A stretch of 64,000 bases of DNA from Candidatus Micrarchaeota archaeon (GCA_021852055.1 JAJZOD010000002.1:10536-74535), one strand, 5' to 3'; positions 48,644 to 63,464 are shown, counted from the first letter of the stretch. Translations and numbers: made by a program. The notes: generated from the letters alone by a model not told the origin.

Positions 48644-48748
48644 TGGACTCCGCGGGATTTTCAAAGCGCTGCAAAATATTGCAGAGCATGTTCGAACCCG
48701 CAACCTCCTGCATGCCATGCAGGCGCGCTACCGTTGCGCCAGGAGCCC
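48644..48748 (-). tRNA. tRNA-Ala(GGC) with a 33-nt intron in the T loop (59/60; intron 48658-48690)
   Basis: GGGCTCC/GGAGTCC acceptor, CCTGC-ATGGCAT-GCAGG anticodon arm; removing the intron restores GCGGG-TTCGAAT-CCCGC; BHB helix TTCG/TGAA. Confidence 0.93.
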
Positions 48749-49004: not shown

Positions 49005-49053
49005 TTCACCAAATAAATGTTCTTATATTGAGAGGTAAACTTTATAAGCGTTG

Positions 49054-49557
49054 TTAATTTCTTCTCGCAATCAACTCTGCTATCTCTTTCTTAGCAGCGA
49101 CTAAACTGTAAAATTTCTGAAAATCGTCATGCATTATCTCCAACGTTTCTGTATTTATTTCTGGGTGAAAGCACACTGTTTCAGAGTCCCATATCTCCTT
49201 ATCGAGTATAAGGTCGGTCTTTTTTGCGTGGAGTACGCCGAATATCGAAACGCTGCCAGGCGTAGTATGCAGTTCTTGCATTAATTCTTCTGCGCTGCCG
49301 AAACGCAGTTTTCCTGCATTAATAAGCTTCGTAATGGTTTTCATGTCAAGGCGCTTATCGCCATTTATGCATATTAAGTAAAAATGGCATTTACCATCCT
49401 TAAGAAAAAGGCTTTTTGTATGCATGCCGCGTATCGTCTCCCTGAGAAATTTTCCGTCGTCGTATTTAAAAAAAGCCTTGTGCTTGTGTAAGACATACTT
49501 CATTCCAATACTATCAAGATATGTCTTAAGCTCCAGATTCATGCAATTATTCCTCAT
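49054..49557 (-). CDS. YbaK/ProX-family aminoacyl-tRNA deacylase (ProXp-ala-like)
   Basis: TKSLFLKD, LRFGS.EEL...L..TPGSVSIFG, FHP.INTETL. Confidence 0.87.
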   Translation of the reverse strand: MRNNCMNLELKTYLDSIGMKYVLHKHKAFFKYDDGKFLRETIRGMHTKSLFLKDGKCHFYLICINGDKRLDMKTITKLINAGKLRFGSAEELMQELHTTPGSVSIFGVLHAKKTDLILDKEIWDSETVCFHPEINTETLEIMHDDFQKFYSLVAAKKEIAELIARRN

Positions 49558-50745: not shown

Positions 50746-50832
50746 TGGGGTCGCCGAGATTTTCAATTTCTTTTTGAACTCGGGTCTTATGCTCCCTAAG
50801 CACAAAGCCTAACCAAGCTAGCAGACGACCCC
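50746..50832 (-). tRNA. tRNA-Pro(AGG) with a 13-nt T-loop intron (59/60; intron 50760-50772)
   Basis: GGGGTCG/CGACCCC-A acceptor; TGTGC-TTAGGGA-GCATA anticodon arm; CCGAG-TTCAAA[intron]T-CTCGG; BHB helix TTCA/TGAA. Confidence 0.9.
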
Positions 50833-50873
50833 TCCCTCATAATTTATCCAATATGTTATTTATACCCTTCACT

Positions 50874-51074
50874 CTACTTCCTGCTGTAGTTTATTATGTC
50901 ATCTATAAGGTCTACGTGGCCTATAAGCATTCTCCTGCAGCAGTACCTTTTAACACCAATCTCATCAAGGACCTTCTTTGGATTCTCCTTGTCTTTATTA
51001 ACGCGTTTATCGTACTCCTCCCACTTATCAGCAATTACCTGACCACATGAGAAGCACCTTACAGGTATCATCAT
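50874..51074 (-). CDS. rpoN: RNA polymerase subunit N (Rpo10)
   Basis: [18 protein letters not shown]. Confidence 0.98.
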
Positions 51075-52444: not shown

Positions 52445-52547
52445 TGCGGGGGGAGAGATTTGAACTCTCGCAAGCACTAAAGCTACAGGAGATCCGAGCA
52501 TAAAGCTCCTCGGTCCTGCGCATTTGACCAAGCTCTGCCACCCCCGC
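52445..52547 (-). tRNA. tRNA-Leu(GAG) with a canonical 16-nt intron at 37/38 (52492-52507)
   Basis: GCGGGGG/CCCCCGC-A acceptor, long variable arm, CAGGA-CCGAGG[intron]C-TCCTG; BHB helix CCGA/TCGG. Confidence 0.93.
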
Positions 52548-61361: not shown

Positions 61362-62612
61362 TTGGAAATAAGATTTTTAGGAGGCGCAAGTGAAGTAGGA
61401 AGGTCAGGTATACTTCTTAAAGGAAGCAAGAAAATACTCATGGATTATGGGCTTAAGGTAAACGAGAGGCTAGAATACCCGCTGCCTGCGGGGCAGATAG
61501 ACGCTTTTATATTAAGCCATGCGCATCTAGACCACTGTGGAAATGCGCCTGCGCTTTACCATGACGGGCTTCCGATAGCATTTGGTACCTCCCCGACGCT
61601 TGACATATCAAGCCTGCTTATAGAAGATTCGATAAAAATAAACCGCCAGAACAAGACAAAAGGTCACTACAGCAAAAAAGAAGCCCAGCTTTTTTCAAGG
61701 AGCTACATGTCGTATCCATATCACACGCGCATAGACTACTCCGACTACAACATAACATTTTATGATGCCGGCCACATAGCAGGAAGCGCAGTTACAAAGC
61801 TTGAGAACAATAAAACCGGGAAAAATATAGTTTATACTGGCGACTTCAAAAGGGAGCAGCAGACTCTCCACGAGGGTGCAGAGATAGTAAAGGCTGACAC
61901 ACTGATCATAGAGTCGACTTATGGGGCAAGGGATCACCCGGACAGGGAGTCGCTGATAAAACTTTTCATATCCAATATAAAGGAGATAATAGAAAACAAT
62001 GGCACTGCGCTGCTTCCTGCGTTTGCAGTAGGCAGGTCTCAGGAACTTCTTGCCATACTGCACAAGTATAAATTATCCGGGCAGACTTACATGGACGGAA
62101 TGTCGAGAAAGGCAACAGAGATAGCTTTAAGACACAAGGAGTTTATCAAGAATGGATCACTTCTTGCAGAAGCAGTAAGCAATACTGTCCAGATAGCGAA
62201 ACCGCAAGACCGCGCTGATGCTCTTCACGGCGGCAATATAATAATAACCACTGCAGGCATGCTTAATGGGGGGCCTGTGCTTGATTATATTACTAAGCTT
62301 AACAGCAGGTCAATGGTTTTTCTTACAGGTTACCAGGCTGAAGGCACAAACGGCCGCAAGCTTCTCGATGAAAGGCCGCTTGACATAGACGGAAGGAAGT
62401 TTGCAGTAAGAACTCCCTTCGCATTTTATGACTTCTCCGCTCATGCGGGCCAGGCAGACCTATACGAGTACGTAAAGGGCGCTGATCCTGAGCGTGTTAT
62501 CTGCGTCCACGGAGATGAGGACGCTTCCCAGGCATTCAAAGAGTGGCTTGAGCTTGAAGGCTACGAAGCCTACGCTCCAAAAGTCGGCGAGAGCATAAAG
62601 ATCGATTTTTGA
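61362..62612 (+). CDS. Metallo-beta-lactamase / beta-CASP ribonuclease (CPSF-like, no KH domains)
   Basis: LGGASEVGRS, SHAHLDHCG, AGHIAGS, YTGD, ESTYG, FAVGRSQE, FSAHA, VHG. Confidence 0.93.
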   Translation: MEIRFLGGASEVGRSGILLKGSKKILMDYGLKVNERLEYPLPAGQIDAFILSHAHLDHCGNAPALYHDGLPIAFGTSPTLDISSLLIEDSIKINRQNKTKGHYSKKEAQLFSRSYMSYPYHTRIDYSDYNITFYDAGHIAGSAVTKLENNKTGKNIVYTGDFKREQQTLHEGAEIVKADTLIIESTYGARDHPDRESLIKLFISNIKEIIENNGTALLPAFAVGRSQELLAILHKYKLSGQTYMDGMSRKATEIALRHKEFIKNGSLLAEAVSNTVQIAKPQDRADALHGGNIIITTAGMLNGGPVLDYITKLNSRSMVFLTGYQAEGTNGRKLLDERPLDIDGRKFAVRTPFAFYDFSAHAGQADLYEYVKGADPERVICVHGDEDASQAFKEWLELEGYEAYAPKVGESIKIDF

Positions 62613-62761
62613 TTTATCTGCACTGCTGGATAAAGGCCTGTTGTTTATTTTATATAAAAGGTATCACCAAATTTAAAATTTAAATCCCTGTCGGCAAATG
62701 TACGATATTGTACAAAAGCGTTAAATACACTAACCCTGAAAAGACAAGACAATGTGATATC

Positions 62762-62983
62762 ATGTCAAAAAGAAAAACAGCGGAACATCATGGAACCCCT
62801 GAGTTAAGCCGAAGATCCTCCAATGCGCTACTTGCAGATGCGCTACGCGGAGCGCCATCTCTACTAAATGTTTCAACTGTTGTATATGGCATTCACAGAA
62901 AATCCGAAGAGGTCCACTGCTATCCACATGAATCCGGGATAACATACATAAGGCAAGACGCTGGAGAATTCCTGTTTGATTAA
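62762..62983 (+). CDS. Small hypothetical protein
   Basis: 73-aa ORF with GTGAT and a TTAAATA TATA-like element upstream; lies just before the IS right-end remnant. Confidence 0.4.
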   Translation: MSKRKTAEHHGTPELSRRSSNALLADALRGAPSLLNVSTVVYGIHRKSEEVHCYPHESGITYIRQDAGEFLFD

Positions 62984-62997
62984 CGCACGAATGCAAA

Positions 62998-63033
62998 GGA
63001 AGCTCACACAGTTCACTGGTGGGAGGATGTCAC
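62998..63033 (+). mobile_element. IS200/IS605 (TnpB-type) right-end remnant
   Basis: GGAAGCTCACACAGTTCACTGGTGGGAGGATGTCAC: hairpin CTCAC/GTGGG followed by AGGATGTCAC. Confidence 0.72.
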
Positions 63034-63110
63034 CAATAGCTCAGGATTAATGAAAAATAAAAGGAGCAGTGAATAAACGGGGCATATTCTGCCCCAGGTT
63101 AAAAACCAAA

Positions 63111-63464
63111 TTACATCTCTTCGTCTTCAGAAGGCTCTTCATCATCTGAAGCCTTGGCTGAAGGCCCAGAGCCCTTTCCAATAACCTCTATCTTTCCATA
63201 TTTACCTGTAGAAAGCTGAGGCGTGCCGCGGAATTCGCCGACATAGCCATTGGTTATCTTTACCTTGTCTCCAACGTTAACATTTGCTATATCATTGCCC
63301 CAGAGCGATATCGCTATAGTGCCTGTATCATCCTTGAGCACTGCATTTGCTACGTTGAGCCTCTTGCCGTACTTAGTTATGACCTCTCTAGGCTCGTCCT
63401 TTTCCGAGACCTCCGCTTCAAGCTCTACGCCTGTGGCTCCTGCTTTTAGTTCGCTTATGTTCAT
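63111..63464 (-). CDS. ssb: Single-OB-fold ssDNA-binding protein with an acidic tail
   Basis: ISELK, LKDDTGTI..SLWG, GDKVKITNGYV.EFRG..QLSTGKYG; DDEEPSEDEEM tail. Confidence 0.9.
   Translation of the reverse strand: MNISELKAGATGVELEAEVSEKDEPREVITKYGKRLNVANAVLKDDTGTIAISLWGNDIANVNVGDKVKITNGYVGEFRGTPQLSTGKYGKIEVIGKGSGPSAKASDDEEPSEDEEM

Follow-up and report, generated by a model that had tools for sequence, protein, structure and literature searches.

A proline tRNA gene that encodes adenosine at the first anticodon position (A34) lies between the genes for RNA polymerase subunit N and ribosomal protein S2 in a family of Candidatus Micrarchaeota (DPANN archaea), at a locus where the sister families carry a gene with the anticodon GGG. 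The product of this gene, tRNA-Pro(AGG), is probably a functional reader of the CCY codons whose A34 most likely stays unmodified and reads both CCU and CCC. We infer from sequence that the gene is expressed, that its transcript is spliced, that A34 remains unmodified and that CCC is among the codons read. The window, that is, the whole stretch of 64,000 nucleotides that was analysed, belongs to a genome of 1.02 Mb (G000) that consists of 14 contigs and is 90% complete. Its family, one of the Micrarchaeales, is called f1 here, and the sister families f2 and f3; the records of the relatives are named Candidatus Micrarchaeota or Micrarchaeia. Coordinates without a contig or locus handle are those of the window.

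The gene is encoded on the minus strand and is made up as follows:

50746..50832, minus strand: tRNA-Pro(AGG) gene including its intron, 87 nt (sequence, insert-tolerant scan, orthologues, covariation)
50773..50832, minus strand: exon 1, tRNA positions 1-59 (fold and comparison with intron-free orthologues)
50795..50797, minus strand: anticodon AGG, with A34 at 50797, G35 at 50796 and G36 at 50795
50760..50772, minus strand: 13-nt T-loop intron at position 59/60 (fold and orthologue comparison)
50746..50759, minus strand: exon 2, tRNA positions 60-73, with the discriminator base A73 (sequence and fold)

The initial annotation had read a plus-strand cct at 50795-50797 as part of a Pro-type tRNA between rpoN and rps2, and this is exact when the minus strand is read. 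Between 50746 and 50832 that strand has the parts expected of an archaeal tRNA-Pro cloverleaf. A G/C-rich acceptor stem of 7 bp is followed by U8, the D arm has A14, G18, G19 and A21, and a 5-bp anticodon stem closes a 7-nt loop with U33 and a purine at position 37 (U32 U33 A34 G35 G36 G37 A38). The variable loop is 4 nt long, the mature tRNA has 74 nt, and CCA is absent from the gene. The D stem has three pairs and a U10-U25 mismatch, as it does in the GGG orthologues. With the loop UU-AGG-GA the gene combines an NGG anticodon with G37, and the proline-type G35 and G36 are retained; position 34 is not known to be an identity element for ProRS.

An alignment of 41 distinct orthologous 5' parts (25 with AGG and 16 with GGG) has the anticodon stem paired in 100% of cells, with compensatory changes in four of its five pairs, and the D stem paired in 99.2% of cells, again with compensatory changes. 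The observed covariation was matched by 0/500 shuffles. As the anticodon stem is fully paired and covaries, the register of the loop is fixed and the A at position 34 is beyond doubt. The initial annotation had made its case depend on the letter at 50797. This base is covered by contigs from four public DNA runs (three studies), none of which has another letter there; the sole difference listed is at 50803. The runs with this DNA are metagenomes labelled as mine drainage, mine tailings or sediment, and no RNA run with the locus was listed. A sequencing error at A34 is ruled out, and for this the comparative evidence outweighs the run contigs.

The T stem of the gene encloses 20 nt rather than 7, and a canonical T arm (5 bp and a 7-nt loop of the form UUCRANY) appears only once the 13-nt insert is taken out. 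In the predicted fold the T stem is followed by a 4-bp helix (UUCA/UGAA) and then by a 3-nt bulge (AAU) on the 3' side, with the 5' site at the edge of the hairpin loop. This is a relaxed form of the BHB motif, and the fold agrees with the definition of a BHB intron by 3-nt bulges and a 4-bp helix or by the relaxed hBH form. Cuts behind the second base of each bulge would excise 13 nt; as there is a run of A at the junction, cuts one or two bases further 5' yield an identical product. The predicted spliced T-loop, UUCAAAU, is the same as in the intron-free orthologues L070, L046 and L047. Among the orthologues the length and sequence of the insert vary and the exons are conserved, and the contigs of relatives diverge from the window at 50772/50773. 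The fold and these comparisons point to a 13-nt intron that would be spliced out at the BHB-like motif. A related arrangement has been described for the pre-tRNA-Pro(GGG) of ARMAN-2 (Ca. Micrarchaeum acidiphilum), apparently the orthologous gene in a sister family, which has introns at 53/54 and 59/60 according to the portion of the report available (PMC3239211). The T-arm BHB introns and the 59/60 site are thus shared, whereas the anticodon is GGG in ARMAN-2 and the window's gene has AGG and the 59/60 intron only; many relatives do have a second insert at 53/54. In the same portion of that report, the epsilon2 endonuclease of ARMAN-2 is shown to cleave another tRNA's 13-nt 59/60 intron in vitro (PMC3239211).

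Because of the 13-nt T-loop insert the gene is missed by standard tools. ARAGORN does not call it in the window or in the genome, and Rfam RF00005 matches it neither in the window at the gathering score nor in the whole genome at E<=10. Our own insert-tolerant genome scan recovers it as Pro-AGG. ARAGORN names an intron-free orthologue (L070:907-982) tRNA-Pro(agg) and two intron-free orthologues of the sister families tRNA-Pro(ggg). As the gene is invisible to ARAGORN and to the Rfam tRNA model, automated annotation will show a missing CCY decoder.

T-loop inserts of the 59/60 type recur in this genome, and genes that carry them are poorly scored or missed by standard finders. The tRNA-Ala(GGC) gene at 48644-48748 (minus strand) has a 33-nt T-loop insert at the same kind of site as tRNA-Pro; Rfam gives it as a partial match (48686-48741) only, and our scan as a full gene. 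On contig C2, a tRNA-Ser(GGA) gene (134213-134341, minus strand) has a canonical intron as well as a T-loop insert, and a tRNA-Leu(CAA) gene (49028-49125, minus strand) has a T-loop insert of 13 nt.

The immediate surroundings of the tRNA-Pro(AGG) gene are as follows:

50874..51074, minus strand: rpoN (RNA polymerase subunit N), the upstream neighbour (PF01194, 107 bits)
50857..50864, minus strand: TATA-like box TATAAATA, 25-32 nt upstream of tRNA base 1 and directly past the rpoN stop codon
50109..50723, minus strand: rps2 (ribosomal protein S2), the downstream neighbour (PF00318, 79 bits)

The TATA-like box is a possible candidate for a promoter of the tRNA gene itself. Judged by eye and uncounted, A/T-rich boxes stand at about the same distance upstream in many of the orthologous loci. 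On the minus strand the order of genes is rpoD, tRNA-Leu(GAG), an unassigned ORF at the place of L18e, L13, S9, rpoN, tRNA-Pro and S2. The tRNA-Leu(GAG) gene between rpoD and the ORF at L18e's place (52445-52547, minus strand) also has inserts. About 1.2 kb downstream of tRNA-Pro(AGG) lies a gene for a free-standing aminoacyl-tRNA editing domain of the YbaK/ProX type (49054-49557, minus strand; PF04073, 84 bits). Members of this family clear mischarged tRNA-Pro, and the closeness of the two genes may be chance.

In the rest of the genome, every remaining four-codon box is served by a G34 tRNA (Thr GGU, Ala GGC, Ser GGA, Val GAC, Leu GAG, Arg GCG and Gly GCC). The initial annotation had asked whether a Pro-GGG gene is missing and whether further ANN tRNAs exist. 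Pro-GGG was not found in G000 by ARAGORN, by Rfam, by our own scan or by a GGG pattern, and our insert-tolerant scan of the genome gave no ANN tRNA other than Pro-AGG. A34 is thus encoded with no G34 isoacceptor found beside it, as is the case for tRNAs that carry inosine at this position (I34). A tRNA-Ser(aga) that ARAGORN called on contig C7 (80215-80333) was considered as a second A34 tRNA and rejected, since in our scan it is a CAU tRNA interrupted by a canonical intron of 43 nt. ARAGORN also named a tRNA-Ile(UAU) gene on contig C11 (77949-78060, plus strand) Ser(tga); its loop reads CU-UAU-A before a 28-nt intron. According to the available part of the report on them, the ARMAN genomes use Ile(UAU) and lack TiaS (PMC3239211).

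The A34 tRNA is a property of the whole family. YU-AGG-GN is retained in all 30 orthologous f1 loci that were fetched first. An order-wide search of 248 genomes, with a pattern that runs from the D arm through G37, found AGG once per genome in 105/117 other f1 genomes, in 0/1 f2 genomes and in 0/129 f3 genomes, and a control with the reversed pattern gave 0 matches. One further f1 genome, G075, has AGG with a D-stem variant that falls outside the pattern, which brings the total for f1 to 106/117. Among the remaining 11, six have no rps2 at all, so the rpoN-rps2 locus is unassembled there; in G004, G006 and G015 the locus is without the tRNA, and the pattern gave no match in G127 or G137. The GGG pattern occurs in 3/117 genomes of f1, in the single f2 genome and in 101/129 genomes of f3. 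All 19 fetched sister-family loci that held a tRNA have GGG, and the named records in f3, Ca. Micrarchaeum sp. A_DKE and those of Mancarchaeum, all have GGG at the rpoN-rps2 locus. These tallies include one AGG genome (G079) and one GGG genome (G050) that are flagged as unpublished, and no claim depends on either alone. Across the class, the AGG pattern was found in 0/337 genomes outside f1, a result that is informative only for f3, f6 and f17 (and for f2 at the level of the order), since in the GGG control the D-arm portion of the pattern suited no families outside f1 other than these.

As both sister families and archaea generally have GGG, the comparison indicates that G34 is ancestral and that A34 is derived at the base of f1. 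The suggestion of the initial annotation that this lineage replaced GGG by AGG is borne out by the rpoN-rps2 orthologue, which is GGG in the sister families and AGG throughout f1. No reversion to G34 was seen among the f1 genomes that have a tRNA at this locus. Within f1 there is variation in the anticodon stem, in the D-loop, at base 73 and at positions 32 and 38, and that A34 was kept while these varied suggests selection for A34 in the f1 tRNA body. Positions 32/38 are U/A (or C/C, U/G) with AGG and U/U or A/U with GGG. In work on E. coli tRNA-Ala the 32-38 pair reportedly tunes the strength of codon binding, and a co-adaptation of positions 32 and 38 with position 34 is plausible from the sequences.

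Two of the genomes without a tRNA at the locus, G004 and G006, belong to the same genus as G000. In both, rpoN abuts rps2 at a distance of 10-20 nt, and their Pro tRNAs (CGG, UGG and GGG) share one common body, with the loop AU-GGG-GU in the GGG tRNA. G000 and G001 have CGG and UGG on that common body and AGG at the rpoN-rps2 locus. The sequences indicate that in G004 and G006 a CGG/UGG paralogue acquired the anticodon GGG and the AGG gene disappeared, probably in a single event. As one purine-34 Pro tRNA was kept in each genome, the AGG tRNA appears to do the job of the GGG tRNA, and this is the best genomic evidence for its function. G004 and G006 are richer in GC (50-58% in four 20-kb loci), and CCC makes up 28.7% of their 962 Pro codons vs 10.7% in G000, which fits a G34 tRNA being the better reader of CCC. 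A third genome, G031, has an extra GGG copy on a 3.7-kb contig besides its AGG gene; this copy is either a true second gene or a binning error. The GGG tRNAs that arose in G004 and G006 and the extra copy in G031 suggest that A34 is not fully equivalent to G34. In G015, a genome that is 88% complete, a 727-nt ORF-bearing stretch replaces the tRNA between rpoN and rps2 (L059, contig C17), and UGG and CGG but no purine-34 tRNA-Pro were found.

The impression of the initial annotation that CCT is frequent, which had not been counted, holds: in 825 long ORFs of G000, for which we crudely took the longest non-overlapping frames that start with ATG, CCU accounts for 3665 of the 10107 Pro codons (36.3%), followed by CCA (27.6%), CCG (25.4%) and CCC (10.7%). 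The Pro ratio U/(U+C) of 0.77 is the highest of the eight four-codon boxes in this genome. In pooled loci this ratio is 0.669 with AGG (0.458 in the other boxes) and 0.625 with GGG (0.440 in the other boxes), and the mean log odds, taken against the remaining four-codon boxes, come to about 1.03 and 0.81, respectively. An expected gain of CCU on CCC in the AGG family, compared with the GGG family, is thus not clearly visible in the pooled loci. As the GGG family shares the preference for CCU, this preference is order-wide and older than the switch, and not a consequence of it. It may have eased the change from G to A. CCC accounts for 15.5% of 3194 Pro codons in 16 f1 loci, and in members rich in GC it is commoner than CCU, for example 82 vs 53 in L126. 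As CCC is in regular use in f1, and above CCU in these members, something reads CCC well.

The initial annotation had called for a search for CDA-fold deaminases that co-occur with the A34 tRNA; no known deaminase family tracks the AGG trait. In G000, PF00383 gives nothing over its cut-off, and PF14437, PF02137 (ADAR-type) and PF00962 (adenosine deaminase) give no match; controls for PF00383, PF14437 and PF00962 were positive in well-known genomes. A weak PF00383 match (13.4 bits) was rejected as a deaminase, as it runs antisense to a 334-aa gene. In 60 relatives, CDA-fold genes occur in 12/36 f1, 0/1 f2 and 12/23 f3 genomes, and they were not found in 24/36 f1 genomes, including genomes that are 93-97% complete. 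Six of these genes were classified, four as TadA-like and two as ComEB-like. The TadA-like ones match NF008113 at 61-74 bits, below the cut-off of 150, and come from the AGG genomes G027 and G005 and also from the GGG genomes G006 (with its rebuilt GGG tRNA) and G049 (f3). G005 has its TadA-like gene next to a UDG-like gene in a two-gene cassette (L182:1336-2419), with an OB-fold gene on the other side of the TadA-like gene. The position beside the UDG-like gene suggests a function on nucleotides or DNA rather than in tRNA editing. The syntenic site in the window, between conserved flanks (61362-63464), is the following:

62613..63110, no strand: gap of about 500 nt at the locus of the TadA-like/UDG-like cassette of G005 (synteny)

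Both the TadA-like and the UDG-like gene are missing from this site in G000, and the best E value of a tblastn search of the whole of G000 with four TadA-like proteins of relatives was 1.2. A deaminase could lie in the portion that is missing from the 90%-complete genome; the empty syntenic locus argues against this for a TadA-like gene. In f1 the A34 tRNA thus occurs in genomes where no TadA/ADAT2-type deaminase was found, and the classical A34 deaminase does not travel with the AGG trait.

As no known deaminase family tracks the trait, we favour an unmodified A34. In the ancestor of f1, the G34 of the tRNA-Pro(GGG) between rpoN and rps2 changed to A34, which has been kept since. The pre-tRNA from this locus would lose its 13-nt T-loop intron at the BHB-like motif, and the mature tRNA would keep A34 as it is encoded. 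A34 would then form a Watson-Crick pair with the U of CCU and a mismatch with the C of CCC, the latter tolerated thanks to the G-C pairs at both of the first two codon positions, while CCA and CCG would be served by tRNA-Pro(UGG) and tRNA-Pro(CGG). An encoded A34, the lack of a detected deaminase and a codon box with G/C at its first two positions are what is expected of such a decoder. A bolder and less probable variant is that CCC is read through a protonated A-C wobble pair, which a mildly acidic cytoplasm in acid-mine-drainage archaea would favour; this would account for the origin of both known archaeal cases in habitats of that kind. There is experimental precedent in bacteria. A tRNA derived from M. 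jannaschii with the anticodon AGG carried no inosine in E. coli and read CCU and CCC about equally, with all four Pro codons read detectably, according to the available part of the study (PMC11066159), which also cites a Salmonella tRNA-Pro mutant with unmodified A34 that behaved alike (Chen et al. 2002). These tRNAs share the anticodon, the lack of inosine and the similar reading of CCU and CCC with the decoder proposed here; they are laboratory constructs or mutants, whereas the f1 tRNA would be natural, long fixed and archaeal.

Other explanations would account for part of these observations. Unmodified A34 may read CCU only, with CCC read by superwobbling of an unmodified U34 in tRNA-Pro(UGG); the change from G to A would then merely have bettered the reading of the preferred codon CCU. 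Elp3 (TIGR01211) exceeds its cut-off in 0/36 f1 and 0/23 f3 genomes and is present in the single f2 genome (612 bits), which hints that the U34 tRNAs of most of the order are without xm5U-type modification. As Elp3 was not found, the U34 of tRNA-Pro(UGG) may be bare and read CCC, in which case the AGG tRNA need not do so. It would agree with this that CCU is the commonest Pro codon and CCC the rarest in G000 (36% and 11%), that the preference for CCU predates the switch, as the GGG family has it too, and that the two GC-rich congeners with abundant CCC went back to a GGG tRNA. We nevertheless consider a restriction to CCU unlikely. In the two in vivo tests of A34 tRNA-Pro covered by the available part of the literature, CCC was read about as well as CCU (PMC11066159), GC-rich f1 members such as L126 use CCC more than CCU yet keep A34, and the state of U34 is deduced from the absence of one gene. 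The initial annotation had left the mechanism between an unmodified A34 and an unknown deaminase, and of these the unmodified A34 is now the favoured one.

Less probable still, though not negligible, is that A34 is converted to inosine by an unrecognised enzyme, a deaminase of a fold not yet tied to that reaction, so that CCU, CCC and CCA are read as in eukaryotes. For m1I57, likewise, no archaeal enzyme is known. An A34 tRNA without a G34 partner is the pattern wherever I34 is used, as far as the available part of a review describes it (PMC8879553), Fujishima et al. likened the case of ARMAN-4 and ARMAN-5 to the eukaryotic strategy (PMC3239211), and TadA-like proteins do occur in some relatives. 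However, these TadA-like genes are found in GGG genomes too, and the congener G005 has one where G000 has none at the same locus. No CDA-fold, ADAR-type or adenosine-deaminase gene was found in G000, two thirds of the f1 genomes searched gave no CDA-fold gene, and the reviews, in the parts available, know of no A34 deaminase in archaea (PMC8007984). If inosine were nevertheless made, this would be wobble inosine in Archaea that arose independently of TadA/ADAT. That the gene arose by an error of sequencing or assembly, or that it is a decaying pseudogene with no function, is highly improbable and already contradicted. The silence of the standard tRNA finders and the U10-U25 mismatch in the D stem could be taken for signs of decay, but the finders fail by the T-loop insert only, as an intron-free orthologue is called, and the GGG orthologues have the same D stem. 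The same A is found in 106/117 related genomes and in the contigs of four runs, the stems show compensatory changes, and the exons are conserved around variable introns.

Encoded A34 without a G34 synonym is known from other systems. The tRNA-Pro(AGG) of eukaryotes resembles that of f1 in that A34 is encoded, the G34 isoacceptor is missing and UGG and CGG tRNAs stand alongside. However, eukaryotes turn the anticodon into IGG with ADAT2/ADAT3, an essential CDA-fold heterodimer, and have seven other A34 tRNAs, whereas in f1 no such enzyme tracks the trait and one tRNA only is affected. The tRNA-Thr(AGU) of Mycoplasma has an unmodified A34. Those Mollicutes that lost TadA and keep tRNA-Arg(ACG), according to the available part of the report (PMC3711424), are like f1 in having reduced genomes and an A34 tRNA without a deaminase. 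They differ in being bacteria, in the codon boxes concerned and in descending from ancestors that used I34, whereas the ancestor of f1 used G34.

A close likeness is with two archaea, ARMAN-4 and ARMAN-5, which belong to a different lineage and to another phylum than Micrarchaeota. As the sister families of f1 have GGG, the origin of the f1 tRNA is independent of theirs. These two are DPANN archaea from acid mine drainage, and tRNA-Pro(AGG), without a G34 synonym, was reported for them together with tRNA-Leu(AAG) in the available part of a study of 2011 (Fujishima et al., PMC3239211). In G000, Pro alone is affected and Leu keeps GAG. The report covers two genomes and gives the matter one sentence (PMC3239211). 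The initial annotation called an A34 tRNA-Pro very unusual for an archaeon; it is not unprecedented. What is new relative to the earlier report is the fixation across a family, the direction of the change, the locus, the absence of a deaminase and the replacement events. In the literature we searched, which included few subscription journals and some sources in part, no prior report of an A34 tRNA-Pro in Micrarchaeota and no follow-up of the ARMAN case was found. In their available parts, reviews from 2021 to 2024 hold that archaea are without ANN anticodons and without an A34 deaminase (PMC8007984, PMC11066159, PMC8879553). The A34 tRNA-Pro is thus a known but nearly forgotten kind of archaeal tRNA, and that of f1 is an independently arisen case.

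With more than 100 species-level genomes, the AGG family contradicts the view that archaea have no ANN anticodons and appears to confirm that they have no A34 deaminase. If our reading is correct, f1 has a natural and long-lived cytosolic tRNA that decodes with a bare wobble adenosine. In the available part of their study, experimenters found no functional reason for the avoidance of A34 (PMC11066159). The clade offers a natural test bed for this near-universal avoidance, with a dated switch from G to A, a sister family that bears G at the same locus, accompanying changes at positions 32 and 38, and one or more lineages in which G returned through a rebuilt paralogue.
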